Source: a virus. From it: DNA of 57,749 bases. The stretch lies in IMG/VR virus record IMGVR_UViG_3300045988_122638. The stretch is one strand, 5' to 3'. A program made the position numbers and the translations under genes. Positions 13,163 through 57,749 of this stretch are shown piece after piece (position 1 is the stretch's first letter; each line of letters opens with the position of its first letter). The notes under the pieces are model-generated. The model made no database searches, was not told the DNA's origin, and was given only the letters and a program-made list of their open reading frames with translations.

Positions 13163-15919
13163 TCAACTATTTAAATATTTCGAAACTGTTGATGTTGACT
13201 TTCCTAAAACTTCTGCGATTTCAGCATTTGTATAACCTGATGCAGCCAAAGCTTTGATTCTACTAACTTGAGCAGAGGATAACGCACCATTAGACTTAGG
13301 GGTAGCCTTTTGTCTTATTACATCTTGATCCGCATACCTTAGTATCTTTGTCAATTTGGAATCGCTTACTGCACCAGACTGAATAGCTTCCCATTCTTTA
13401 TCTGTTATGTTAATTCGCGTACCTTTTCCGCTTGCACCGACTGCTATACGAGCCTTGTTAATGGCAATTTGTTTTACTTTTTTCAATGCTTTCTTATCTT
13501 TTTCTAATTCTGGATTAGCTTGTTTTTTCGCCTTTACTTCAGAATTAGCAAGAACTTGAGCTCTTCTTTCTCTCGGTGCATTAAGTGCAGCAAGATTTAG
13601 TTTCGCATTTAATGAATCCACTTCTGACTGATAGATACGTTTGGCGTTTGCATTGGTAGCAAGTCTACCAGTATATACCGCCTCCTTACGAGCATCGTTA
13701 GCCATGGCTTTCATTTTATTAGCATAATCAGCATATGCATTCTCCTTAGGGTGTCCCGATGACAGCTTATGTGCATCGTCTGTTACTGACATCAATGACA
13801 CATTCGTCATCGCTTGTTTGGTCTTTCCGGTCTTCGGATCAACGTATGTTCTGCCTGACTCTTTGTATAATATGGTCCCCTCAGGTTTGGTAGGATCATA
13901 CCAACTCTTTCCTTTTTGATTTATTCTCCCTGAACCTTTTCTTTCAGGCACTTGAGTCTCTTGCTTACGTCTTGATAGTAGGGTTGACGCCCCGCTCTCT
14001 TTTAATTCTCCATCCATGTTTTGATGACGCTGGTAGGTCTTCTTTAGCAAGGCTATATCGTTGTCTTTTTCGGATTGTTTATAATCTAATTTGTGCTTTT
14101 CAGCATCAATTACTACCATACTATGTTTTACAGCTTTAGCTATATCTTTCTCAGGTGCCCCGCGCAGTGTCATATCAGTTATAAGATTTGACACTATGCC
14201 CATTTGTTTTTGGGTTTCGCTTTTAGTCATGACTTTCATTCCCTCATGATAAGCATACTGAGTCTTAGGATCGAATCCCTCCAAATCTTTTAACGGTGGT
14301 GTTGATTTTATACGAACTTTATTGTTTACTGGTATAACTGTTACTTGATCGCCATCAAAATCAGCCCCTGATAATCGTTCAGCCACTTTAGCGTTAATAC
14401 CAACGGCATCGACAACATTTCCCAATATCCTTTTCGCTGATGGATTTTTATTATTAACCGTCAATACCGGTATTTCAAATGTACCACCATGAGGAAAACG
14501 AATTAATGCCACCTGTTCACCGTTTTTATAGTTAGGAGCATATACTTCTGTTTCTTTCATTGCCGATATAGGTAAAATAACTTGAGTATTCTGCCTAGGC
14601 AATGCGGCTGCTTGTAAATGTACCGCCGCTGCATCACAATCATTTGCAAAATCCATTAACATTTTCTTTTTTACCGTCGGATTAGTAAGAGATTTTATCT
14701 CTGAGTATTCTGCCTCTCTATCTGCATATGTTAAATCCAGCTGTTTCTTTATCATACTCAAAGGTTGCTTCGATAAAAATTGCTGGGATAGATTTCTTGA
14801 CATCGTATCCCAATCCCCTTCTTCTTTAAGTTTGTTAATGGCAGAAAGTTTTTTAGTTCCATCTTTAGGATCTATATATTCACTTTGACCATTGGCTTTG
14901 ATTAATGCACCAAACGGATTTTCAGGATCATCTTTTATTGGTTTTAACACATTCATTTTATCGGTCCCCGACTTTTTATTTGTATTAAACACGATATCTA
15001 CTCCATCTGGAATATCATCAGAATACATAGCCATACCTTTCAAGTAATGGGTACCGTCTACAAGTATACGTACTTGCGCGTAGTGTGAATTTCCTAAATC
15101 CAAATCGGGTACACCACGTCTTATTTCGATGACACCATCCTTATTCAAACCGCCCTCATCACCATAGCATATACTAATTCTTCTAGAATCTATACTGGTT
15201 GGCTTTTTTAATTCGTTGAATGTTGCACCACCATCAGTAGAATGATAATTACCCAAAGATTGCACATCACCCATATTTTGATATACATCTCTATATTCAA
15301 TTTCCGGATTACACAAAACTTTAGTGTTCGATTGCTGATGGGCATTAGTCACTTGAGGAATTCCTACACCATAAACGTTGTATCCCTCACGTTCCAAAAT
15401 ATAAAGAGCTTCTTTCATAGTATTTTCCGATATACCAATCTCTCGCTCTGCACCGGCACCAACATCTATCATACTTTTTTTCTTTAATTCTTTCTTTAAA
15501 ATATCAGCAGCTTTTTGAGCACGATTTGCTCTTTCGGCAGTATTGTCGTTCAAAAGTGAACGAACAGAAGAATCATATTGGTATCCCATGATTTTTGCAA
15601 TTTCATTAAGGGATTTACCATCCGCTCTTAGTGATTTAGCACGGTCAACTTCCAATTGACGTCGTTCATGCGACGCTAATTGTTTTTGCACTCTGTATTG
15701 GGTAGTGCTTAAACCCAATTCATGTGCGATTTCAGTTTCCGTCATACCAGATTTTTTTAGTTCATCTATTCTAGATAGAAAATCTCCGCTATGTTGAAAC
15801 GGATTTTCTCCACTCCCCCACGGGTAACGTCCTGAGTGTCGTGGTGTACCATAATGGGCTAATGCCTTACCACTGGAACCGCAACCAAAATATGATTTTA
15901 TTTCGTCTATAATACTCAT
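13163..15919 (-). CDS. YonO/QDE-1-like single-subunit two-barrel RNA polymerase with N- and C-terminal HTH modules
   Basis: 918 aa. LIRFPHGG (aa 472-479) lies upstream of SGADFDGDQVTV (DFDGD = aa 520-524, nt 14348-14362), which is the beta-prime/RdRP-type metal-binding signature. HTH-like units: MTETEIAHELGLSTTQYRV, KSLNEIAKIMGYQYDSSVRSL and C-terminal YTNAEIAEVLGKSTSTVSKYL. Confidence 0.65.
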   Translation of the reverse strand: MSIIDEIKSYFGCGSSGKALAHYGTPRHSGRYPWGSGENPFQHSGDFLSRIDELKKSGMTETEIAHELGLSTTQYRVQKQLASHERRQLEVDRAKSLRADGKSLNEIAKIMGYQYDSSVRSLLNDNTAERANRAQKAADILKKELKKKSMIDVGAGAEREIGISENTMKEALYILEREGYNVYGVGIPQVTNAHQQSNTKVLCNPEIEYRDVYQNMGDVQSLGNYHSTDGGATFNELKKPTSIDSRRISICYGDEGGLNKDGVIEIRRGVPDLDLGNSHYAQVRILVDGTHYLKGMAMYSDDIPDGVDIVFNTNKKSGTDKMNVLKPIKDDPENPFGALIKANGQSEYIDPKDGTKKLSAINKLKEEGDWDTMSRNLSQQFLSKQPLSMIKKQLDLTYADREAEYSEIKSLTNPTVKKKMLMDFANDCDAAAVHLQAAALPRQNTQVILPISAMKETEVYAPNYKNGEQVALIRFPHGGTFEIPVLTVNNKNPSAKRILGNVVDAVGINAKVAERLSGADFDGDQVTVIPVNNKVRIKSTPPLKDLEGFDPKTQYAYHEGMKVMTKSETQKQMGIVSNLITDMTLRGAPEKDIAKAVKHSMVVIDAEKHKLDYKQSEKDNDIALLKKTYQRHQNMDGELKESGASTLLSRRKQETQVPERKGSGRINQKGKSWYDPTKPEGTILYKESGRTYVDPKTGKTKQAMTNVSLMSVTDDAHKLSSGHPKENAYADYANKMKAMANDARKEAVYTGRLATNANAKRIYQSEVDSLNAKLNLAALNAPRERRAQVLANSEVKAKKQANPELEKDKKALKKVKQIAINKARIAVGASGKGTRINITDKEWEAIQSGAVSDSKLTKILRYADQDVIRQKATPKSNGALSSAQVSRIKALAASGYTNAEIAEVLGKSTSTVSKYLNS

Positions 15920-16915: not shown

Positions 16916-17266
16916 TTATAACTTTTCGTTATATATTTCTTCGTACTCATAGTTATCATTAAAATTTTCTCTTTCAATTTGATTATATACTGTACGTTCT
17001 CGAACATTGTTTCCGCACACTGGGCATATCCACCTACCATCGAGCACATCTGTTTTACCTTGTTGAAAATCCATATATTCATCACATTTGTTGCATTTCA
17101 CAAATAAAGGAATATCATCGTGATTTCTCTTTGAAGATGGTATTAACTTAATGACGTCTTCAAATATAACTTTAGATTTTCCTATACGTGTTCCATAACC
17201 GAATTCAAATCCTGAATGTTTGTATTGTTTGTAAAGTTTTTCATATTCTTTATCATGTGTTGTCAT
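16916..17266 (-). CDS. Zn-ribbon protein (start ATG 17266)
   Basis: ACGGAGGG RBS. Motifs CNKCDEY...CPVCGN. The track ORF 16916..17317 extends upstream into the promoter. Confidence 0.65.
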   Translation of the reverse strand: MTTHDKEYEKLYKQYKHSGFEFGYGTRIGKSKVIFEDVIKLIPSSKRNHDDIPLFVKCNKCDEYMDFQQGKTDVLDGRWICPVCGNNVRERTVYNQIERENFNDNYEYEEIYNEKL

Positions 17267-17305
17267 ATTCAATCCCTCCGTTCTTATTATATTAAATCTA
17301 TTATT

Positions 17306-17334
17306 ATTATAACACATTCATTCGGTTAATTCAA
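17306..17334 (-). promoter_or_regulatory. SigmaA-type promoter (TTGAAT-17-TATAAT, TGn-extended)
   Basis: Minus strand: TTGAATtaaccgaatgaatgtgtTATAAT, about 35 nt upstream of ATG 17266. Confidence 0.6.
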
Positions 17335-17434
17335 TGAGTTTAAATGTCAAAACAAACTTATTGGTCAAAAACCCGTTTATTTTTCTTGTACTATATATAT
17401 TTATATATTTTTTTATTCGCAATTAAATATAAAT

Positions 17435-17633
17435 AAAAGTGGGTATTTGACCACAAGTCCTTACAAACCGCATAGGTAAGCCATTTTTACGTGGTCATTT
17501 TTGTTTAAAAAGTGGGCTAAAAGTGGGCATTTGGCCATTTTTATTGCCGTTTTCAACTTGAAAATATACAACAAATCTATTGATGATTAACGTATTTTTT
17601 TATAAAAGTGGGCATTTGGTCATTTTTATAAAA
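17435..17633. repeat. Iteron-like direct repeats AAAGTGGGCATTTGGYCATTTTTAT; candidate origin or operator array
   Basis: Full copies at 17519-17545 and 17605-17631. Degenerate copy at 17435-17454. Half-sites at 17480-17503 and 17507-17520. All lie in a 345-bp AT-rich intergenic region. Confidence 0.7.
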
Positions 17634-23209: not shown

Positions 23210-24256
23210 TCACTGCTCTTGTCGTTTCTTTGCCATCTCTTTACGTTCATCATATTCAGTTTTATCAATCTCATCAAAGCCTACTAGAGCATTTTTGAAA
23301 TAACGGTTAATCTCAATCCGACGTCCATGAGGATCAATGGCATACAGCAGACCCATAGTGTCAAAAGAACCATTCTTAGAATCCGTAAGAAAATCTTCTG
23401 TGTAAACCTTAAACGACTTATCAAACGGAATATAGGGCATTCTAATAGGATATAATTCATTCATAACACGATCAACCAGTCCACAATGATAGCTAGCATT
23501 GTGATTATCGTTGTTTATACAACAATATCGGTCCACATCGCTATAGGTAACAGTACCATCTTCCGCAACATACTTAAAAAAAGAGCTCATTCTTTTGCAC
23601 TGATACTGCTTTATACTACCATCGTCATCAAGAGTACACAGATTCCATGCATCTTCGGTATCTTCAATAGGCATAAGGGGCTTACGATCTATCATACGGT
23701 TTAGAATAGTCTTAGTAAAGCCGATACTCATACCAGAGTGTCCGTCCTTACAAAGACTTTTGAATGCCTTTAAAGCACTCTCGTAGCAGGCACAACCGTA
23801 ATCCCATTCACCATCTTTTCGTTCTGGCGCCTCATGCTTACACGCCAAAGCAACCTCATTCTCAGCCCATAATTCCATATTGGATTTTTCTCGAAATAAC
23901 TCTATCATTAGATTGCGGTCGTCTATGTACTCATTTGCAAATATCTTTCTGGAATCCCCGCCGAATGCTTCAATAATCTCTGGAAGATTCTCATTTACAG
24001 CATCGAAAGTCAAACCTTGTGCTTTGCACCACTCTACTGCCTGTCGCGTCTGATCTTCATTTCGACTAGTCCAAAGAATTAACTTGTCCCCATTAGACTG
24101 TCTCTTTTTCAGATATGCAATCAAATTCTTGTTCGGCTCGCCGATATCAGGATACTTATTCGTACATAAAGTCCCATCAAAGTCTACAGCAATAATATTC
24201 TTTTTTGTTTGTTTTATATCTCCGTTGTCTATACGCTCTGTAACATATTTACTCAT
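23210..24256 (-). CDS. HAD-superfamily phosphatase-like N-terminal domain plus unknown C-terminal domain
   Basis: IIAVDFDGTLC is the DxDGT HAD motif I, with LILWTSRNED further on. 348 aa. Confidence 0.55.
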   Translation of the reverse strand: MSKYVTERIDNGDIKQTKKNIIAVDFDGTLCTNKYPDIGEPNKNLIAYLKKRQSNGDKLILWTSRNEDQTRQAVEWCKAQGLTFDAVNENLPEIIEAFGGDSRKIFANEYIDDRNLMIELFREKSNMELWAENEVALACKHEAPERKDGEWDYGCACYESALKAFKSLCKDGHSGMSIGFTKTILNRMIDRKPLMPIEDTEDAWNLCTLDDDGSIKQYQCKRMSSFFKYVAEDGTVTYSDVDRYCCINNDNHNASYHCGLVDRVMNELYPIRMPYIPFDKSFKVYTEDFLTDSKNGSFDTMGLLYAIDPHGRRIEINRYFKNALVGFDEIDKTEYDERKEMAKKRQEQ

Positions 24257-24414
24257 CTTTTTTCTCCTTTTTTATAATTAATTGGCACGTGAGAATTTAA
24301 AACGTACGGTTGCTCTATACATTCATTACACGGTTCCTCACGTTCGTCTTTATTTTTATAAATACACGTTTTACAATAGTCGTTAAAATATACCTCTTGA
24401 TAGTCTACTTCCAT
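24253..24414 (-). CDS. Small Zn-ribbon protein (53 aa; below the track cutoff)
   Basis: ATG 24414 overlaps the helicase stop and its TGA overlaps ATG 24256 (ATGA). Translation MEVDYQEVYFNDYCKTCIYKNKDEREEPCNECIEQP... Confidence 0.5.
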   Translation of the reverse strand: MEVDYQEVYFNDYCKTCIYKNKDEREEPCNECIEQPYVLNSHVPINYKKGEKR

Positions 24415-25628
24415 TTAAGATACCTCGATTCATTAAATTTTTTCTTACTTTCCAGAGCCTTACTAATGGCTAAATCAATCCCGCTTCGAGATTTTAAATG
24501 ATAGTAATATAAATCTGAAAAGGGCGTATTTAATCTATCTATTCGTCCGGCAGCTTGAGCCATAACCTTATAACTATAATTTTGACTATAAAATATAATA
24601 GTATCGGTTTTAACACAGTTCCACCCCTCGCAACCTGCATTATACTGTACTAAATATACCCAACGGGTACTCTCTGGAATAGGCTGATGTTTGTGTCCGT
24701 TCCATTCTGCGATTTCAACATCGTCGCCATACGAAATTTCCTTTAATATTTCCAACTCGTAATCAAAGTTGTAAAATATAATTAGTTTCGGATGTTTTTC
24801 GAATAGTTCACAGACTGCTACTTGACGTGAGTCATCACTATTAACTATTCTCCTTAATAAATAACATAACTCGCTCGCGGTTTCCACCGGTTTATCCTTA
24901 TATGGGTTCCAACGATTACGCATAGTATCCTTGTATGTCAAAATATCATACTTTGTATATATATCTTCATGATGTGATACTGTTTTCCTACGAAAATCCA
25001 TAGTTATCAAAATTTTATTTCGTAACCGAATTAAGCGTCCCGTATTAATGTATCTGTCTATTTGAGGGAATTTACTAAATCGTTTATATATGATGTGTTC
25101 ACGAGTAAATTCAGTTCGATTTTTATAAAAACCATTAGCTATGAATACCGGAATATAATCTTGCCAAGTATCGCCAGGCGTCGCCGACAATAAAATCCAT
25201 TCATTATCTTTGGTTATCTTTAGGAAAGCCTTTACCCATGTACCACTTCCGACAACTCTTTGCTCATCAAATATAAAGAACGCATTCTTGATATTCTCGT
25301 ATTTTTTTATGTTGTTCCATGAATCAACTATAACTTTATTGCTGTATAAATTTACATCCTTATTTGTAGAAAGTAAAAACGGTATCATATCAGCTTCCCA
25401 TTCTTTCGTATCTCTTTTTCGTGCCGTAGTGATAACATATAAGTCTTTTACATCGTTATCATCCATTGGTACATATTCATCACTATCAATATCTCCACCA
25501 TTTTGGACATAATAATATCCGAGTGCCGTTCGAGATTTACCACTTCCCACGCCACCACACAAGATACATCCATTTTGCATTCTTTCGATTGCACTTTTTT
25601 GATAATCCCGTAATCCGATTTTTGACAT
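24405..25628 (-). CDS. Superfamily-2 (SNF2/DEAD-like) helicase
   Basis: Motif I CGGVGSGKS, motif II FIFDEQ, C-terminal helicase motif AAGRIDR. Confidence 0.75.
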   Translation of the reverse strand: MSKIGLRDYQKSAIERMQNGCILCGGVGSGKSRTALGYYYVQNGGDIDSDEYVPMDDNDVKDLYVITTARKRDTKEWEADMIPFLLSTNKDVNLYSNKVIVDSWNNIKKYENIKNAFFIFDEQRVVGSGTWVKAFLKITKDNEWILLSATPGDTWQDYIPVFIANGFYKNRTEFTREHIIYKRFSKFPQIDRYINTGRLIRLRNKILITMDFRRKTVSHHEDIYTKYDILTYKDTMRNRWNPYKDKPVETASELCYLLRRIVNSDDSRQVAVCELFEKHPKLIIFYNFDYELEILKEISYGDDVEIAEWNGHKHQPIPESTRWVYLVQYNAGCEGWNCVKTDTIIFYSQNYSYKVMAQAAGRIDRLNTPFSDLYYYHLKSRSGIDLAISKALESKKKFNESRYLKWK

Positions 25629-25983: not shown

Positions 25984-26439
25984 TTATTGTTTAGATGCAT
26001 ACTTTTCCGCAAATTCATCTTCTTGAATAGTTACATACATAGTTTTCAGATAAGCCTTTATGCCGCTTTTACCGTTTGCTTCCCATTCATAAGGATTCAA
26101 AATAAGATCCACGTTGATTATATCTGCAAAATCAAGCGTCTCGATACTTTCCTCATCAAGTTGTGTCTGTGCCCTTTTGGTTACCATTATGATTTTAGGC
26201 GGAATATTTCGGAAGCTTACCGAAACCTGAATATAATGCTTTGATTCTTCATCTTCGTCTCTAGCCGGAAGAATTTTTACATTCCAACCATCTCTGGCTA
26301 ATTGTTCAGCCTCATCCGCGTCATCTATTATCACACAAAAATTTCTGTCTCCGGCTCTGTTGTATTTACTCTCGTTTCCTGCGAAATTTCTAAATATAAT
26401 TCTTGCATTTTCTATAGCTAAATTTTCTACTCTTGACAT
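25984..26439 (-). CDS. Single-stranded DNA-binding protein (T7 gp2.5/DUF2815-like)
   Basis: Start ATG 26439. [29 protein letters not shown] pattern, acidic C-terminus, and position next to the polymerase. Confidence 0.5.
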
Positions 26440-26465
26440 TTTTGTTACCTCTTTCTTCATTGTTA

Positions 26466-29400
26466 TTAATTTACAAACCATTCAAAATCACCATATTGTG
26501 AAATATCACAAATGGCATCGTTGACCATATTTTCATAATAAGAGCGATCGATATCTGCTTCTTTTCCGAGTTCTTTTACCATCTCGGCTTCAAGCCATCT
26601 GTATCCCTTACTACCTCCTGCGGCATAATATTTGCCGTCTTTTTCTCTCATTAAAAGTCCGCCATTACATCCCTGTTTTATAGGGCAAAATTGCCCGACT
26701 TTTCCGATAAATACATAGTTATGCGATTCTTCCTCTTTTTTACGAAGTTCGGAATATCTTTCGCCGGCATATTCAGTATCATACTTATACGATTTAAGCA
26801 CTTTTTCCATATTCTCAGAATCTTCAGAATCCCAAGCCTTATGTAATTTTGTTAATTCTTTTTCCTCTTCAATTGTTAATTGAGGCAATTTCTCATTCAT
26901 ATCCAAATATAAACTAGAAGTCACACTATTTGTTACGCACATATCCTCGAAAACAATATCCTCTTTACTAAATAGCGTTTTAAATACATATGGTACTTGA
27001 AACTGTGTTCCTGTGGCAGTCCATTCTCCGGCATGCTTTCCGTCTTTATACTTTGCGATATAAACAGCATCGTTTACAAGACACATTCTGTCGTATGTAG
27101 CCTCATGCTCAAATATATAACCATACATTTTACCATAATCTGATACAAACTGAATAATCTCAGGCGTTGCGTTTGGAATTTTTATCGAATCGGTTTTTAT
27201 ATGAGCAACTGTGAATCCTCTTGCTTGTACTTCATGTTTTAGATTAACCATGAATAAAGCACCACGTTTTGCGACGATATTGTCGACATTTCGATTATCT
27301 TTAAATGGATTATCGAATTTCGCTGCTGTTAAGCCATAAACTGAATTAATAGCGATTTTCAAAGCCTGAGCCAAATCTGCTGCAGCTCCCTCATCTGTAA
27401 GATACTTTGTCAACTTTCCATCCAGCATTGTTTTGGCAGTCTCAAAATCATTGTGCTTAATCGCAACACGAGCATCTCTTATTTCCTGAAACCGTTTTGT
27501 ATATTCACAGCCAAATAACTGTTCAGCTATAATACTGCTCGGATGCATAGAAGCAATATCCAATAACGCAATGTTACTATACATACCTGGTTCGGAATAC
27601 ACATATCCTCCCTCACCGATTTCTTCACCTCTATACATGGATTTTCCGAATTTAAATTCATAACCCGGAAATATAGGTCTATTCTGATTATCAAATCTGG
27701 TATAATCATCAAATCCGTCCATTAGAATATCGTCACTCGATGGAAGTCCCATATCACGATAATTAAATTGTTCCTGCGGCTTTCTGTTCTTACCAAATAT
27801 AATTCTTGTTGTAAGAGAATTTGTTGTATCGTTCACAGTCATGCCCGCCACATCAGCTAATATCTCTCTGGCAATAAAATCTGCTTTTCTGGCATTAAAT
27901 ACAGCTTCCGTCGCAATAACATCGTTATCACAATATTCTGCAACTTTTGCCCATAATTCTTTAGGTACCGGTTGATCCCAAGGCAATCCGAGTTCCTGAT
28001 GGTGAATACCCAATTCAATTTCAAACTTCTTTAATGATTGTTTTTTACTTGAAAAATCATAAACATCTGTATATGATACATTGTATGCCTCTCCAAAGAA
28101 ACAATTAGGACTGCCATTAATTATTTTCTGTGATAAATTATACAACTGTTCATTTGTATAACCCATTAGCCGTGCGTAGAGTATATGGTTATCATATCTT
28201 CGGCAGTTAAACCCAACCAGTCTGAATCTCATAAGTTCTTCTACCTCAGCCGGTGACGGATTAATCATCCGTACAACAGGCTTACCCTTACCCTCAAATT
28301 TCCAATTGACTAAGAATAAATTAGGGAAGACTTCTACATCGTAGAAAATAAGCTTTGCATCGTCATTATTTTTTCCGACAGATGGTTCCTCTGATTTAAA
28401 ATTCATTTTACTTACAAGCTTTATACAGTAATCCGATTGATTTGTACTATTAGCAGCAAACGCTAGTATAGCATTTCTCATATCGGTAACGTCATATTTC
28501 AAACCACTATCATAAGCATCGTCCAATATTTTATGTATAAAATCAATACTCGGTTTTGTTGCTGGATGGATTTCTTTATTAAGATTACGCTTTATTAATG
28601 TTCTAAGTCCCTTTTCGCTTTTAACAGCTTCTATATTTATCATTTTGTTTTCTCCTTTCAATGGTAATCCAGAGCTAATTGTTGCAATAGGTAAATCATT
28701 ACACCTAGACAGTTTACGTCTTAATGAACTTTTTCCTATAAAAACTTTAATTTCTATATCTTCGTCATATATTCTACTTAGGCGTGTTGGATCTCCCGTG
28801 TAAATATAATGAAGATGGATACCCGCTCCACTTTTGCTTAACTCAGCATATGTAGCTGGCCATTTACTAGCCGCCTCTAGATTTTTTTCGAATGATTTTT
28901 TTCCGTTTTCATCTTTGATATCAAAATCAATTACTATATGATTTTCTGGAACTTTTACATAATGAAGTTTAGTTGTATCGATGCTCGATAGTTTAGTTGT
29001 TACCTCGTCCCAAGGTTTCATCGGTGTTTCATTACTATTCGCATACTGAGCAATACAATCCGCATATTCTCTATCAAATATAGATTCTTGACTGACAAAC
29101 GCAATTGAACTGTCACCATTATTTTTATCTTGATTAATAACTGTCAAATTATCAATTTTGACAGTTTTAAACCCACTGTAATATGACCTGACACGAGTTC
29201 CATCGTTCAATGTATGACGTTCTTTATAATCCTTAAAGTAATTCTTTAGCTCTTCCTTAAAAGCTCTTTGTGATAACGGATAAGGCACTTTTGCTTCGTC
29301 ACAATACTGTTTATACATTTCCCAAGCAGCTTTTAATGTTGTTCCGTTTTCTTTAGAAAATATATAATACGAATCTGTTATGTAATTATAAAAATCGTTG

Positions 29401-30449
29401 GACGCACTCATCATACTTATGGGTATATAATCATCATAATACCCGGTGTTGTCTAAATATAAATCTAGGCAATGATTTGCTATAGCTCCTAATTCAAAAT
29501 CGATTTGCTTTACAATAGTTTTGTATTCTTTCGGGCTAAGTTTGTTTCCCGACGGAGATACATCTATTAGTCTTCGAATCAATCCTGATTTTGCATCTGT
29601 AATTTTAACAGGCTTATTTGTTCCCATAAATAAGAAACACTTGAAGCGATTAGAATATGTAGACTTGAATTTCTCATTAACAGTCATTAACTCATGTGAT
29701 ACCAGACTATTCAATCTTGTATTATCTTCGATTCTTGACAGATCACCATCATGTTGTATAGCAACTAACGGATTGCTCTTAAAAGCCTCCAACGCAAAAG
29801 AGTTACTACTCGATCCCAATGCTTTTGCATCAAATACCGAATAGTAACCCTGAAATAATTGTTGTATAATATTTAAAACTGTTGATTTACCAGTACCGGC
29901 TGCTCCGTACAGAACCATAAACTTTTGAATATGTTTAGAATCACCTGCTACTATTGAGCCAATAGCCCACTCAATCTTATGACGTTCTTCTTCAGAATAT
30001 AAAGTTGACATGAGTTTATCATATGCTGAAATATCTCCTTTTTCGAGAGGATAATTCAGTCTTTTGCTTGCATAATCTTTTTTATTTGTTGGACTATTTG
30101 AAAATATAAGTTTTTCGTCCAGCATATGAAAATTATCTCTCATCTGCTTTTGACAATACTTATGCCATGAGTCTATCATGCCTGACTCTGCGTCCCACAT
30201 ATGTAATATCTTCACCGTTCCTTCAAAACGTTCTTTATTTTCCTTAGCGAATACGTCTAATTCTTCATCTATTAATTGCAACGCATCTTGTTCGTCCGTA
30301 GACCATAAGCCACGCTTTTCAATCCAGATAGCATAGAAATCACCACCTCTAATCATGAGATCGGAACTTTTTTTAATGATGAACTTTGGATATATTTCGA
30401 TCACACCCTTTTTGCTACATCTTGTAGCAACAATCATAAAGTCAATCAT
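26466..30449 (-). CDS. Replication fusion protein: SF3 (D5-like) helicase, AEP primase-like domain and family-B DNA polymerase
   Basis: Walker A GAAGTGKS (aa 182-189), Walker B IQHDGD, motif C FMGTN. AEP-like IVIDFD and SGAGIHLH (aa 505-547). ExoI YDVEVF (703), Exo[12 protein letters not shown], ExoIII YCDNDV. PolB motif A DIASMHPS (964), [10 protein letters not shown] (1031), C IKTDS (1084). Confidence 0.8.
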
Positions 30450-32221: not shown

Positions 32222-32740
32222 TTAAAATATAATTTTTTCGATTTTGGCTATCTTGCCGTTAAGAGGCATGTACACATTACAATTACCATATAGTTTTATC
32301 ACATTAGGCAATTTACGAGTGTCAACTATAAACTCGATAACGTCATCATTATAACTCCACTGATGAGTCGAATTTGTGTCACTATCGTCTTTTTGGTCAG
32401 CCAAGCAACCATAGAATATATTACCAGTATCAGTTGTAATTCTATATTTAGAACCAATTTCTGTACCGTAATGACTGCCCATAGCTATCAAATAGTAATC
32501 ATCAGTTATTCCCAAATCACGTTCGCCATCACAACGCATAAAACCGTCATAATCAGACCAACCCCAACGATCAATATATTTATACTGATCGCTGGACTGA
32601 CTTGTAATTGTTCGGTAATCCATATATGTTTTAAATGAGCTGTCTATATTTGGTGTTGACAATTCTATGTACTCATCAGCCGAAACTGATACTGAATTCA
32701 ATGCTACTGTCGCTAATAATATAGCTAATATTTTTCTCAT
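32222..32740 (-). CDS. Secreted protein (signal peptide), unknown function
   Basis: MRKILAILLATVALNSVSVSADE is a signal peptide. 172 aa. Confidence 0.6.
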   Translation of the reverse strand: MRKILAILLATVALNSVSVSADEYIELSTPNIDSSFKTYMDYRTITSQSSDQYKYIDRWGWSDYDGFMRCDGERDLGITDDYYLIAMGSHYGTEIGSKYRITTDTGNIFYGCLADQKDDSDTNSTHQWSYNDDVIEFIVDTRKLPNVIKLYGNCNVYMPLNGKIAKIEKIIF

Positions 32741-32751
32741 GATCTTTCCTC

Positions 32752-33699
32752 CTATATTAAATCGTATATTGGTCCGTCCACATTAAATGTTAATATAACT
32801 GTTGGGTCGTCCCCATCCAAGAAATTACGATTTTCTTGTTTTGTGTAATCGTAAATTCCAAAATCAACATAACCATCGCCTTTATAATCAGGATCATCCG
32901 GTCTATAAACCCATCCAACTATCTGTCCGGCTTTAGTTCTCTCATATCCGAGTTGATCATACAACTCGTTCAAGAAAATATGCCCTCTACTTTGAAGAAC
33001 ATCATTTGCCCAATTTTGAACCGATCGCAATACGTATAGATTATGGTCTGCATCTTTTTCCCAACCATCATTACCGGCATCGTAAACTCGTCTATACTCG
33101 GATGAAGCTATATCATCGATAATTGTAACGTTTTTTTCAACTGTTTTTTCTTCACCATTTTCATCTACAATTGTTTCGGTAACGGTTTCCGTTCTCACTC
33201 CGCACTTTAATTCTTTATCGATTTTCTCACCAAATCTTGTGATAACACGTTTGCGATAATCTTTAAAATTATTATCGATAGCCGTGTATGCAGCCATCAA
33301 AGCAACGTTACGCTTACGAAGTACATTATGAGCAGCTAATATGGACGCGATGCTTATTGCTCCTAACACGACTGCCGGCGCATAAATCTTAGCTAATTCC
33401 AGACCTGTTTTGGCGTATGTTATACTTAAGTCTTTTTTACAATCGTCCGCTGTATACTCCTCAATTATAAGTTCACCATCTTTATCGGTAGTTATTTGGC
33501 CTTTTTCTTCAGCAGCGTGTATCTTGTCAACGTTGTTTTTTGTCTCGTTCAATATATCATCGATTTTAGTAGTAGCTTTGCAAGCCATAACCGCACTTAC
33601 CACTGTTCCAGCAATACCCGCAACCATCATGATTTCAGGGCTGTGTTTTTTTATTTGTAATCCTATTCTATTTATAGTTCTTGTAATTTTCGCATTCAT
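32752..33699 (-). CDS. Two-TM paralog family protein, member 1 (315 aa)
   Basis: Shares IKKHSPEI..GIAG...KAT, a second TM helix and a C-terminal LNELYDQLG...GQIVGW block with ORFs 35372..36136 and 36694..37461. Confidence 0.7.
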   Translation of the reverse strand: MNAKITRTINRIGLQIKKHSPEIMMVAGIAGTVVSAVMACKATTKIDDILNETKNNVDKIHAAEEKGQITTDKDGELIIEEYTADDCKKDLSITYAKTGLELAKIYAPAVVLGAISIASILAAHNVLRKRNVALMAAYTAIDNNFKDYRKRVITRFGEKIDKELKCGVRTETVTETIVDENGEEKTVEKNVTIIDDIASSEYRRVYDAGNDGWEKDADHNLYVLRSVQNWANDVLQSRGHIFLNELYDQLGYERTKAGQIVGWVYRPDDPDYKGDGYVDFGIYDYTKQENRNFLDGDDPTVILTFNVDGPIYDLI

Positions 33700-35371: not shown

Positions 35372-36136
35372 TTAGCAATAGTCATACTCTGGTGACACTG
35401 CGTATTCTATAGCTAAGCATGGATTTCCATCGTCCGCCAATAGTGGCACATATGATATATCTATTAGACCTCTATCTATATTCCAACCTAATTGGTCACC
35501 CATTTTAGTAAAACTCAACCCGAGTTCATAATAGAAATCGTTCAAAGATATATATGACTCGCTAAGCATTCGCCTGTTTAGTTCATTTACTATTTTTTTA
35601 ATAGTATCTATATCAGACTTAAAATATCGACCACTCACCGAATCATAGCAAAGTGTATCTCCTTTTGATGTAATAATAACCTCTTTATTAGCCATTGGAT
35701 TATTCTCTATTTTTTCTTTTACGATTTTTGTTTTTATTTCTTCAGCCTTTTTTTCGCCTACAGTCTCTGCTACTTTTTCTTGATAACTTTTTAATGTAGC
35801 TTCGGTCATAGCATAAACACTTGCTAATGCCGTATTTCTCTTGAAACTTACTGTTGACGCTCCTATCAAACATGTCGCCGACATCAATATCGTTATTGCA
35901 GACGGAATATAACATTTCCAAGTACATTTTACAACCTCTATCGGCTGTAATTTACTTACTTGTTGTTCATCTTTTTCGCATTCGATATTCTTCAAAGCTT
36001 TAGGTGTGGCTTTTACAGCCATCACTGTAGCAGAAATCATACCGGCAATTCCTATACCTGTTAGTATTTCAGGACTATGCTTTTTTATTTTTCTACCTAT
36101 ATTTTTTGTTATAACTGACAAATTTTTGTTCATCAT
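35372..36136 (-). CDS. Two-TM paralog family protein, member 2 (254 aa)
   Basis: IKKHSPEILTGIGIAGMISATVMAVKATPKAL and LNDFYYELG...GDQLGW blocks. Confidence 0.7.
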   Translation of the reverse strand: MMNKNLSVITKNIGRKIKKHSPEILTGIGIAGMISATVMAVKATPKALKNIECEKDEQQVSKLQPIEVVKCTWKCYIPSAITILMSATCLIGASTVSFKRNTALASVYAMTEATLKSYQEKVAETVGEKKAEEIKTKIVKEKIENNPMANKEVIITSKGDTLCYDSVSGRYFKSDIDTIKKIVNELNRRMLSESYISLNDFYYELGLSFTKMGDQLGWNIDRGLIDISYVPLLADDGNPCLAIEYAVSPEYDYC

Positions 36137-36693: not shown

Positions 36694-37461
36694 TCACAAC
36701 CAACCATCGAGATAATCCGATGTTGGAGCAAAGGGCATGGAAATTAAACATACTTCCATTCCATCATCTGTTGTTATAAAATCGTGTTCAAAATCAACCC
36801 AGCTATAGCCATAAAACGCCATACCTGCATCTATACTCCAACCTATCGTGTCTCCACCTTTGATCTTATCTATTCCTAAAAAATCATATAATTCATTTAA
36901 CGTAGCATATCCGCGTAAAGTAAAATTTCTATTAAAATGATACTCTGCAGATATCACATCTACTTTATTCGATTCAAAATATCTTTTTGAAAACATATCA
37001 TAAAATAAACTTTTTTCTTCTGAAGACACCTCAGGTTTTGTATCACGATAAATATCTTTAGCCATTTCTTTATCTACAGCAGCATCATCTCCATACATTT
37101 CATTAACTTTATCTCTATACTCTGTATATGATTTTTGTAATAATGCATAAGCGCTTATGAGAGATGCTTGTTGCTTTTTATTAAGAATATTAGCACCTAA
37201 TATACAAGCTATAGTTGAAACACCTATAATTATAGTAGGTAGATATATATGAGTCGTAGTTATGATTTTTTCTTTATTCGATAATTTATCACCTTTTTCT
37301 TTTTCTGCCTCTTCTATAGAATATAAAGCTTTAGGTGTCGCTTTAATTGCACTAACAGCAGTAATAACTACACCTGCCGTACCTATACCAGTAAGAATGG
37401 TAGCTACGTTTTTCTTAATGAAACATCCTGTTTTACTTAATAATTTATTCATTCTATTCAC
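36694..37461 (-). CDS. Two-TM paralog family protein, member 3 (255 aa)
   Basis: FIKKNVATILTGIGTAGVVITAVSAIKATPKAL and LNELYDFLG...GDTIGW blocks. Confidence 0.7.
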   Translation of the reverse strand: MNRMNKLLSKTGCFIKKNVATILTGIGTAGVVITAVSAIKATPKALYSIEEAEKEKGDKLSNKEKIITTTHIYLPTIIIGVSTIACILGANILNKKQQASLISAYALLQKSYTEYRDKVNEMYGDDAAVDKEMAKDIYRDTKPEVSSEEKSLFYDMFSKRYFESNKVDVISAEYHFNRNFTLRGYATLNELYDFLGIDKIKGGDTIGWSIDAGMAFYGYSWVDFEHDFITTDDGMEVCLISMPFAPTSDYLDGWL

Positions 37462-39968: not shown

Positions 39969-40059
39969 AACACATCGAGTGGAAATATCCACTTTTTTCT
40001 GTAATCAAAAAAACTCCTTTCTTAAATATAAATTACGATGTTGGTTTTATAAAAAAGAG

Positions 40060-40133
40060 AATGGCATGCAAGAATCGAACTTGCGACCCTCAGATAGATA
40101 TATCTGCCGCTCTACCAACTGAGCTAATGTCTT
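40060..40133 (-). tRNA. tRNA-like gene with an atypical 8-nt anticodon loop and 2 acceptor-stem mismatches; possible attP partner or pseudo-tRNA
   Basis: Minus strand: AAGACAT-TA-GCTC-AGTTGGTA-GAGC-G-GCAGA-TATATCTA-TCTGA-GGGTC-GCAAG-TTCGATT-CTTGC-ATGCCAT-T. D and T arms are canonical. Motif copy 11 lies 5 nt upstream and CTCTTTTTT follows downstream. Confidence 0.45.
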
Positions 40134-40189: not shown

Positions 40190-40513
40190 ATGATTAAAAT
40201 AAATGAAAAATATTGTCCTATTTGTAAAAATAAGTTGAAATACTACGACAGTGTAAAAAGAATAGTGAAAACTAAAAGAGGGAAAACTAAAAAGATTGTA
40301 ATTCGCAGACTTCGTTGCAGTTCGTGTAAATCATTACATAGAGAGCTCCCAAGTTCAATAATACCATATAAAGAATATGAGTCTGAAATAATCATTGGTG
40401 TAATTGAAGGTCTGATTACTCCTGAAACTCTAGGATACGAAGACTATCCTTGCGAGATGACTATGAATCGTTGGATCAACGAAAAAAATAGACTTTTAAA
40501 AATGTATTTTTAG
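40190..40513 (+). CDS. Zn-ribbon protein, possibly DUF6431-like; candidate lysogeny-side regulator
   Basis: CPICKN...RRLRCSSCKSLHRELPSSIIPYKEY. Same strand as the integrase and directly upstream of it. Confidence 0.5.
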   Translation: MIKINEKYCPICKNKLKYYDSVKRIVKTKRGKTKKIVIRRLRCSSCKSLHRELPSSIIPYKEYESEIIIGVIEGLITPETLGYEDYPCEMTMNRWINEKNRLLKMYF

Positions 40514-40584: not shown

Positions 40585-41817
40585 ATGTTAATGCCATGTC
40601 CCGAATGTGCTTTAAATGTTAGCGACAAAGCAATATATTGCCCTCATTGTGGCTTTCCTTTAAAGCCAGAGAAATTACCAAAAAAAATGAAAGGAAAAAA
40701 TAATAAAAGAAGAAGATTGCCAAACGGTTTTGGTCAAATAAGTGAAATTAAGAATAGAAAGTTACGTAATCCATTTCGTGCAATGATTACTGTTGGTAAA
40801 ACAGAAACAGGAAGAAGTATTTGCAAACCACTCAAACCGCAATCATATTTTCCTACTTATAACGCCGCATACGAGGCGTTAATAGAATATAATAAGAATC
40901 CATACGACCTTGATGTAGCTATCACAGTCTCAGAACTATACGAAAAATGGACAAGTGAATACTTTAAAACATTAAAATCAGCATCGAGTATTCGTACGAT
41001 CACTTCCGCATGGTCTTATTGTTCATCGATATACAATATGAGAGCCAAGGATATTAGGGCTCGACACATCAAAGGATGTATGGACGATGGTGTAGCTATA
41101 ATAAAAGGTGAAAAACGACTGCCTTCTGCGAATATGCAATCCCGAATAAAATCGCTATTTAACCTGATGCTAGACTATGCATTAGAATACGAAATAGTAG
41201 ATAGAAATTATGCTCGAACTTTTAATACTTCATCCGATGTTTTAAAAGAATGTGAAGAAAACTCCGACAGTCATATAACATTTTCGGACGAAGAAATATC
41301 AATATTGTGGGATAATCTTTATAAAGTTCCATATGTCGATATTTTGTTAATACAATGCTATTCTGGATGGCGACCGCAAGAACTTGGTTTAATTGAACTA
41401 AAAAATATAGACTTTAAAAACAATACTTTTATTGGTGGAATGAAAACCGAAGCCGGAACAGAAAGAATTGTTCCGATACATTCAAAAATAAAAGAGCTTG
41501 TTAAATTTAGATATGACGAAGCAGTTAGACTGCATAGTAAATATCTTTTTAACTGCCCTGAATCAAAAAATAGTGTCAACCTTACATATGACAAATATAG
41601 AAGCCGTTTCAAAAAAATTATAGAATGTTTAAATTTAAACCCCGAACACAAACCACATGACGGTAGAGTATATTTTGTTACAACAGCAAAAAAATATAAC
41701 GTAGACCAATTTGCTATAAAATATATTGTTGGACACAAAATCAATGATTTGACAGAAAAAGTCTATACAAAAAGAGAAGCATCCTGGTTAAAAACAGAAA
41801 TAGAAAAGATTAACTGA
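40585..41817 (+). CDS. int: Tyrosine recombinase / phage integrase with N-terminal Zn-ribbon and AP2-like arm-binding domain
   Basis: 410 aa. CPECALNV..CPHCG, then RLPNGFGQISEIKNRKLRNPFRAMITVG. The catalytic region has WRPQE...HKPHDGRVYF...GHKINDLTEKVY. Confidence 0.85.
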   Translation: MLMPCPECALNVSDKAIYCPHCGFPLKPEKLPKKMKGKNNKRRRLPNGFGQISEIKNRKLRNPFRAMITVGKTETGRSICKPLKPQSYFPTYNAAYEALIEYNKNPYDLDVAITVSELYEKWTSEYFKTLKSASSIRTITSAWSYCSSIYNMRAKDIRARHIKGCMDDGVAIIKGEKRLPSANMQSRIKSLFNLMLDYALEYEIVDRNYARTFNTSSDVLKECEENSDSHITFSDEEISILWDNLYKVPYVDILLIQCYSGWRPQELGLIELKNIDFKNNTFIGGMKTEAGTERIVPIHSKIKELVKFRYDEAVRLHSKYLFNCPESKNSVNLTYDKYRSRFKKIIECLNLNPEHKPHDGRVYFVTTAKKYNVDQFAIKYIVGHKINDLTEKVYTKREASWLKTEIEKIN

Positions 41818-57694: not shown

Positions 57695-57749
57695 TGCAAA
57701 TATCTCTAATGCAGCTCCTATTATTACTAATGAAGTTGCTGAGCGTAAT
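57695..57749. repeat. Second copy of the 55-nt terminal repeat (redundant with nt 1-55)
   Basis: Identical string at both window ends. Confidence 0.95.

Follow-up and report, generated by a model that had tools for sequence, protein, structure and literature searches.

A single polypeptide joining a superfamily 3 (SF3) helicase, an archaeo-eukaryotic primase (AEP) and a DNA polymerase of family B (PolB) was originally described by Kazlauskas et al. (NAR 2016, PMC4889955), who counted two known fusions of helicase, primase and polymerase, gp55 of Lactococcus phage 1706 among them. The group was subsequently named HelPrimPolB and placed in the EpsilonN-like PolB clade, where it forms a divergent branch that is marked by unusual MotifC and KxY motifs and has abundant members in metagenomes (Kazlauskas et al., NAR 2020, PMC7544198). 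The gene analysed here is a minus-strand open reading frame (ORF) at positions 26466..30449 of the IMG/VR virus record IMGVR_UViG_3300045988_122638; the whole stretch of 57,749 nucleotides is referred to below as the window. An earlier note made from the letters and translations of this DNA (the sequence-only reading) had implied that the arrangement was novel. That implication does not hold, as the architecture was published in 2016, the group received its name in 2020 and biochemical characterisation followed in 2025, and the window protein is one more member of a known family.

The biochemical study (Zhang et al., NAR 2025, PMC12205980) was carried out on GP55 of phage 1706, which was purified as a single 1317-aa protein and termed a 'four-in-one replicase'. 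It was reported that the DNA polymerase activity of GP55 is lost in the D949A mutant, the 3'-5' exonuclease in D712A/E714A and the helicase, which is UTP/dTTP-dependent and confers strand displacement, in K189A. The AEP primase makes RNA primers of 2-22 nt, prefers GTP at 5'-CCAAC-3', is inactive in D509A and yields no primer product when supplied only with dNTPs; priming also requires a new alpha-helical domain (aHD), unrelated to the HBD, in which Y655 and F667 are critical residues. Wild-type GP55 replicates ssM13 de novo and is mainly dimeric by size-exclusion chromatography with multi-angle light scattering, and more than 1000 homologues were counted, mostly in human-associated phages. 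Literature searches on HelPrimPolB and on single-chain helicase-primase-PolB proteins found no characterisation beyond this study.

The other known single-chain fusion, Pas55 of Actinoplanes phage phiAsp2, combines an SF3 helicase with a DnaG primase and PolA (PMC4889955); by this description its DnaG-type primase and family A polymerase set it apart, and it is analogous rather than homologous to the window protein. Homologous AEP cores and D5-like SF3 domains are found in NrS-1 gp28 (PDB 6A9W, 6K9C), poxvirus D5 and the SaPI5 protein (7OLA), but these place the AEP before the helicase and have no PolB, whereas the window protein has the reverse order and carries a PolB. The sequence-only reading had remarked that the AEP normally precedes the helicase, in agreement with the 94% of primase-helicase fusions in which the primase was found to be N-terminal (Kazlauskas 2016, PMC4889955). 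In NrS-1 the AEP serves as the DNA polymerase, starts with dNTPs, is accompanied by an HBD helper domain and forms rings (Zhang 2025, PMC12205980); GP55-type enzymes differ in their RNA primers, in the unrelated aHD and in the separate PolB, while GP55 is mainly dimeric. Stand-alone PolB proteins of 9g-like coliphages, of Enterococcus and Pseudomonas siphoviruses and of crAss-like phages match aa ~671-1094 of the window protein at ~23% identity, and the tblastn matches to their genes cover the PolB region only.

The replicase gene and its homology to GP55

The ORF at 26466..30449 (minus strand) begins with ATG, is preceded by a Shine-Dalgarno sequence (AGGAG) and encodes 1327 aa followed by a stop codon; the ORF listing of the window gives it as a single frame with zero internal stops, which bears out the uninterrupted 1,327-aa chain originally claimed. 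Using BLASTP, the protein was aligned with Lactococcus phage 1706 gp55 at 40% identity (aa 19-1321 against 22-1298, 924 bits, E = 0), and membership in the GP55/HelPrimPolB family is inferred from this full-length homology to the exemplar. The two proteins are of similar size (1327 aa in the window and 1317 aa for GP55), have a common order of SF3 helicase, PriS-like AEP, aHD and exonuclease plus PolB, and have a divergent motif C in common (HIKTDS in the window protein, HVKTDS in GP55); one is from a temperate phage of gut Clostridia and the other from a Lactococcus phage. The profile phrog_4210 ('DNA polymerase') also spans the protein, aa 2-1326 corresponding to profile positions 1-1285 of 1304 (2072 bits). 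All residues found essential by mutagenesis of GP55 are identical in the window protein and are 95-100% conserved in an alignment of 110 full-length family representatives with less than 50% identity to one another. The gene is thus very probably the phage's own DNA replicase, of the HelPrimPolB/GP55 'four-in-one replicase' family, and nothing suggests a function different from that of GP55.

An exact-string search recovered all eleven motifs listed in the sequence-only reading at the positions given there, save that the ExoI string FYDVEVF starts at aa 702 and not at aa 703. In the helicase, GAAGTGKS starts at aa 182, VAIQHDGD at aa 229 and FLFMGTN at aa 272; in the AEP, IVIDFD starts at aa 505 and the motif II string at aa 538; in the exonuclease, FYDVEVF is followed by the ExoII string at aa 748 and EYCDNDV at aa 838; and in the polymerase the motif A string starts at aa 962, KIAINSVYG at aa 1031 and HIKTDS at aa 1083. 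Across the 110 representatives, residues K188, N278, R293, D508, D510, H545, E566, D704, E706, D753, D843, D964, K1031, N1035, Y1038 and D1087 were invariant (110/110), and with key residues 100% invariant these motifs are not chance strings.

For two of the three modules, searches with the single sequence told almost nothing, so that family profiles and structure models were needed: the Pfam search of the replicase gave only DUF5906 above its cut-off, and a phmmer search against the PDB matched E. coli Pol II only marginally across motifs A-C (E = 0.014). The positions of the Pfam, PDB profile and Foldseek matches bear out the predicted order of helicase, primase and polymerase along the chain, and profile and fold searches independently support all three domains. 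A HMMER search with aa 431-700 alone returned 485 clusters at 50% identity; nearly all of its top matches were proteins of 1250-1450 aa, matched at about residue 450-700, and the putative primase domain therefore appears almost exclusive to this same architecture.

Helicase, primase and polymerase modules

Assignment of aa ~100-420 as a D5-like SF3 helicase is supported by profile evidence. Pfam DUF5906, the D5-like helicase P-loop family, matched aa 180-293 with 51 bits against a cut-off of 27.6 (E 2.7e-13), and a search of the PDB with the full-length family profile matched, at 4.6e-16, the helicase half of the SaPI5 primase-helicase 7OLA (profile positions 37-427 aligned with 7OLA residues 379-770) and, at 1.3e-5, the NrS-1 helicase domain 6K9C; these matches uphold the SF3 helicase of the earlier prediction. 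By the 7OLA alignment, aa 1-175 (29925..30449; all module coordinates are on the minus strand) would form an N-terminal region and a D5N-like helical domain before the helicase core, and PHROG 'DNA primase' families match the replicase from aa ~53 onwards through their C-terminal halves. The SF3 (D5-like) P-loop core, placed by DUF5906 at aa 176-340 (29430..29924), carries Walker A K188, Walker B D234, sensor-1/motif C N278 and the arginine finger R292/R293. K188 corresponds to K189 of GP55, the residue whose change to alanine removes helicase activity. The C-terminal domain of D5-type helicases is placed at aa 341-420 (29190..29429), inside the 7OLA alignment and with a weak match to Pfam Pox_D5 at aa 352-414 (E 0.0063, below cut-off); by analogy with the proteins described by Kazlauskas 2016 (PMC4889955), it is probably a winged-helix domain.

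The predicted AEP primase core and its helical domain, at aa ~461-680, are supported by sequence comparison and structure modelling. The catalytic core, PriS-like or Prim-Pol in type, was placed at aa 461-600 (28650..29069) by AlphaFold, Foldseek and profiles, and carries motif I (IVIDFD, with D508 and D510), motif II (with H545) and motif III (IEIK, with E566). An AlphaFold model of aa 470-700 had a mean predicted local distance difference test score (pLDDT) of 90.2, and of ~90-97 over the catalytic core; when this model was compared with the PDB using Foldseek, only six significant matches were obtained, all to the NrS-1 AEP prim-pol (probability 0.97-1.00). In a PDB-sequence profile search of the region, 7OLA and the NrS-1 prim-pol were the top matches, aligned on DxD and SGxGxH. 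Pfam Prim-Pol (PF09250) was matched by 26/37 family members with a best E of 2.9e-4, and Pfam AEP-TOTE by 12/37; all of the PF09250 matches were sub-threshold, and the window AEP would therefore belong to a divergent AEP lineage rather than being a strict PF09250 member. The AEP primase-like domain first proposed from the letters is upheld by the NrS-1 fold and by these Prim-Pol matches. D510 corresponds to D509 of GP55, and the D509A mutant of GP55 is without primase activity.

The aHD was modelled at aa 601-680 (28410..28649) as four to five helices, which on their own had no significant fold match; no Pfam PriCT or HBD match, as would mark a helper domain of PriL, HBD or PriCT type, was found in the replicase. 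Two of its residues, Y652 (conserved in 104/110) and F664 (106/110), correspond to Y655 and F667 of GP55, the mutation of which abolishes primer synthesis.

Sequence motifs and structure modelling likewise support aa ~701-1327 as a predicted family-B polymerase that includes a 3'-5' exonuclease. ExoI is not preceded by a separate PolB N-terminal domain. The exonuclease subdomain, at aa 701-890 (27780..28349) by its motifs, their invariance and Foldseek, has ExoI D704 and E706, ExoII Y752 and D753, and ExoIII Y839 and D843. The polymerase subdomain, comprising palm, fingers and thumb, is at aa 891-1327 (26469..27779) by HMMER alignment to E. coli Pol II, Foldseek and invariance, and has D964 in motif A, K1031, N1035, Y1038 and G1039 in motif B and D1087 in motif C. 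The AlphaFold model of aa 688-1327 had a pLDDT of 91.4 and a predicted template modelling score (pTM) of 0.86, and gave 234 significant PDB matches with Foldseek; the best 50 of the 234 were all family-B polymerases, among them archaeal PolB, Pol II, Pol alpha and the African swine fever virus polymerase. With the full-length family profile, E. coli Pol II was matched at 8.8e-6. Motifs, fold and the Pol II profile match together confirm the family-B polymerase initially called. D704/E706 correspond to D712/E714 of GP55, where mutating both abolishes the exonuclease, and D964 to D949, where D949A is without polymerase activity. In the family alignment a poorly conserved insertion of ~60 aa was seen at aa ~1181-1240 (window 26730-26909, minus strand), which is absent in 60-80% of the family, so that the window protein differs from most members in this respect.

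Two active-site positions depart from those of other family-B polymerases such as E. coli Pol II. Motif A reads SMHPS; its His969 (nt 27543-27545, minus strand), invariant (110/110), occupies the position of the steric-gate Tyr in the SLYPS of Pol II. In motif C (HIKTDS), alignment to Pol II puts Lys1085 (nt 27195-27197, minus strand), present in 108/110, in place of the first Asp in DTDS, which fits the motif C divergence reported for HelPrimPolB. A conserved 'NDAVY' (N1126, Y1130) is a candidate for the KxY motif, chosen from sequence rather than by structural mapping. The GP55 paper (PMC12205980) makes no mention of a steric gate, and the pairing of His969 with Lys1085, undiscussed in the literature on the GP55/HelPrimPolB family that was consulted, is offered as a lead and not as a finding. 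It is considered unlikely that the two residues alter sugar or nucleotide discrimination and so give the family an unusual PolB active-site chemistry; if they did, the consequence might be, for example, that ribonucleotides are tolerated or that very short RNA primers are handed over efficiently. In published assays GP55 behaved as a normal proofreading DNA polymerase (PMC12205980).

Proposed mechanism and alternative explanations

In the proposed mechanism, the SF3 helicase would open the duplex, the AEP core and aHD would make short RNA primers de novo, and PolB would extend these with 3'-5' proofreading and helicase-assisted strand displacement. The enzyme might act as a dimer, with priming by one subunit and extension by the other, and the products of the adjacent genes for an annealing/single-stranded DNA-binding (SSB)-like protein and an SF2 helicase would probably assist. 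By analogy with the 40%-identical GP55, all four activities are expected to be real in the window protein, its primers would be RNA rather than DNA, its helicase may prefer UTP/dTTP and would confer strand displacement on the polymerase, its primase and polymerase should be able to cooperate in trans, and it may work as a dimer and not as an SF3-type hexamer. Two variants of this scheme were dropped because of data on GP55. One had DNA primers made as in NrS-1, the sole fold match, whereas GP55 yields no product from dNTPs alone; the other had six polymerases borne on an SF3 hexamer, whereas GP55 is mainly dimeric.

Several points weigh against reading the gene as a GP55-type replicase. The window AEP segment scored 12.7 bits with PF09250 and did not reach the curated cut-off of 22.8 bits, and neither of the Pfam PolB models (DNA_pol_B, DNA_pol_B_exo1) was listed for the replicase even at E <= 1, the sequence being too divergent for those models. 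With Pfam thresholds not reached, the AEP and PolB assignments rest on fold, motifs and GP55 homology, and the activities of the window protein are themselves argued from GP55. At only 40% identity, its helicase nucleotide preference, primase recognition site and oligomeric state may differ from those of GP55. On the supporting side, the ORFs scanned in the window included no further gene for a polymerase, primase, clamp, ligase or RNase H, and the only other replication ORFs among them were the SF2 helicase, the annealing/SSB-like protein and an exonuclease; with a few small or structural ORFs lying outside the scan, this absence is not exhaustive.

The long chain could alternatively be a polyprotein, from which proteolysis or internal initiation at the linkers would free the helicase, primase and polymerase. 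The modules are indeed separated by two poorly conserved linkers, one at aa 421-460 (29070..29189, minus strand; conservation 0.34-0.37, with insertions in the family alignment) and one at aa 681-700 (28350..28409, minus strand; conservation 0.38, ~9 inserted residues per sequence), the second of which coincides with low pLDDT at the ends of both AlphaFold models flanking it, and the GP55 primase and polymerase can work in trans. A scan for in-frame ATG, GTG or TTG codons preceded by Shine-Dalgarno-like motifs found no such combination at either linker, the only strong one being at M603, inside the primase module, and there is therefore no sign of separately translated products; nor is a protease linked to the replicase gene. 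Full-length GP55 is stable and active, and its domains are interdependent in cis, as deleting the polymerase domain nearly abolishes helicase activity while deleting the helicase reduces strand displacement. Release of separate enzymes from the window protein is accordingly judged very unlikely.

It is also highly improbable that one module is degenerate, with the AEP, for example, serving as a structural bridge and priming left to a host enzyme or to transcription by the phage RNA polymerase. The AEP core is small, without a PriL/HBD-type helper and below Pfam thresholds, and the phage also encodes a YonO-like RNA polymerase; against this, D508, D510, H545 and E566 are invariant in all 110 representatives, the aHD residues essential for priming by GP55 are kept in the window protein, and GP55 both loses RNA-primer synthesis in D509A and, as wild type, replicates ssM13 de novo.

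The sequence-only reading had suggested a search of databases for the same architecture, and this was found to recur in phages and in bacterial genomes. Using tblastn, the gene was detected in 379 deposited phage genomes, 252 of which cover at least 80% of the query; its annotation is 'DNA primase/polymerase' in phages of Gordonia, Arthrobacter, Streptomyces, Curtobacterium and Rhodococcus, and 'helicase/polymerase' in Faecalibacterium phage FP_oengus. Proteins of the Gordonia, Arthrobacter, Streptomyces and Rhodococcus phage supercluster are 46-53% identical to the window protein over the full length, and a relationship among FP_oengus and actinophages has been described (bioRxiv 10.1101/842583). 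A scan of bacterial genomes, one per species, gave 142 loci, of which 80 were kept; nearly all of these 80 are full length and most are prophages of gut Clostridia, and they include the cultured Hungatella hathewayi, [Ruminococcus] torques ATCC 27756, Blautia faecis and Enterocloster lavalensis. All integrated copies in long contigs were from Clostridia.

That the long ORF is a frameshift or mis-assembly artefact fusing separate helicase, primase and polymerase genes, for which no positive evidence was found beyond the possibility in principle of sequencing errors in a metagenome-style assembly with a 55-nt terminal overlap, is effectively refuted by proteins of equal length and 92-99% identity (P0001-P0005) in independent assemblies, by the uninterrupted architecture of the 252 isolated-phage records and of the bacterial loci, cultured isolates and prophages included, and by the expression and purification of phage 1706 GP55 as one 1317-aa protein.

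Replicase contigs of ~50-60 kb were also observed in metagenome-assembled genomes labelled Tannerellaceae, Parabacteroides, Muribaculum, Bacteroides and Methanobacteriaceae (loci L007, L020, L032, L077, L078 and L082). These phage-sized contigs are probably mis-binned free phage genomes.

Phage genome and neighbouring genes

Positions 1-55 of the window are 100% identical to 57695-57749, and this exact 55-nt terminal repeat indicates a circularly closed assembly (k = 55) and a complete phage genome of ~57.69 kb. The window is the complete circular genome of a temperate phage of gut Clostridia, related to FP_oengus (Oengusvirus), whose 'helicase/polymerase' AUV56521 is the closest deposited phage homologue of the replicase (61.6% identity, full length). 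Both genomes have an integrase, a YonO-like RNA polymerase and an SF2 helicase downstream of the replicase; the cas4-family nuclease of FP_oengus and an exonuclease-family ORF of the window are alike by annotation only. A megablast search of deposited phages with the 20 kb surrounding the gene gave no nucleotide-level match, FP_oengus included, and for want of such similarity to any deposited phage the window phage would be at least a different species or genus.

Downstream of the replicase, a 165-aa gene annotated through PHROG as a single-strand annealing protein (25984..26481, minus strand; phrog_4787, 6.5e-68) overlaps the replicase 3' end by 16 nt and is a probable replication accessory. 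In FP_oengus an annotated single-stranded DNA-binding protein (17084-17596) lies downstream of the replicase after one hypothetical gene. An SF2-type DNA helicase of 407 aa follows (24405..25628, minus strand; phrog_62, 5.5e-62), and a second helicase downstream of the replicase is also found in phages 1706 (orf67) and FP_oengus. Downstream of it, and still within the replication module, is a 348-aa protein (23210-24256, minus strand) which matches phrog_24386, of unknown function, over its whole length, and whose N-terminal ~120 aa match HAD-type phosphatase or polynucleotide-kinase-like PHROGs.

Elsewhere in the window, a 918-aa ORF with a C-terminal helix-turn-helix (13163-15919, minus strand) matches phrog_4291 'RNA-dependent RNA polymerase' with 1237 bits; its FP_oengus counterpart is a proposed YonO/crAss-like RNA polymerase and a signature gene of the phage group (bioRxiv 10.1101/842583). 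Three paralogues of PHROG 2152, of unknown function, are encoded on the minus strand at 32752-33699, 35372-36136 and 36694-37461 (E 5e-83, 3e-84 and 1e-71, respectively), all three within 5 kb upstream of the replicase. The product of a 172-aa ORF at 32222-32740 (minus strand) appears to have a signal peptide at its N terminus (MRKILAILLATVALNSVSVSA), matches no PHROG, and may be secreted or act in lysogenic conversion. At 40059-40133 (minus strand) ARAGORN reported a tRNA-like gene whose two-base anticodon is undefined; inspected by eye, it shows an anticodon loop of 6 nt and two mismatches in the acceptor stem, and it is probably a pseudo-tRNA or attachment-site remnant rather than a working tRNA. 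Beside it lies the only plus-strand block, a small Zn-ribbon ORF (40190-40513) and the integrase (40585-41817). Structural genes in the window include those for a large terminase, portal, head protease, tape-measure and tail proteins and an endolysin, and further ORFs encode an exonuclease and an HNH endonuclease.

As a discovery the replicase is of little importance, its family being represented by a PHROG, hundreds of annotated phage genomes, two comparative-genomics papers and one biochemical study. It adds a divergent natural variant, 40% identical to GP55, for comparing helicase nucleotide preference, primase site specificity and oligomeric state, and may be of use in developing such enzymes for primer-free DNA amplification. 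For the phage itself, the finding confirms that the contig is a complete temperate phage replicating with a self-contained GP55-type replicase.

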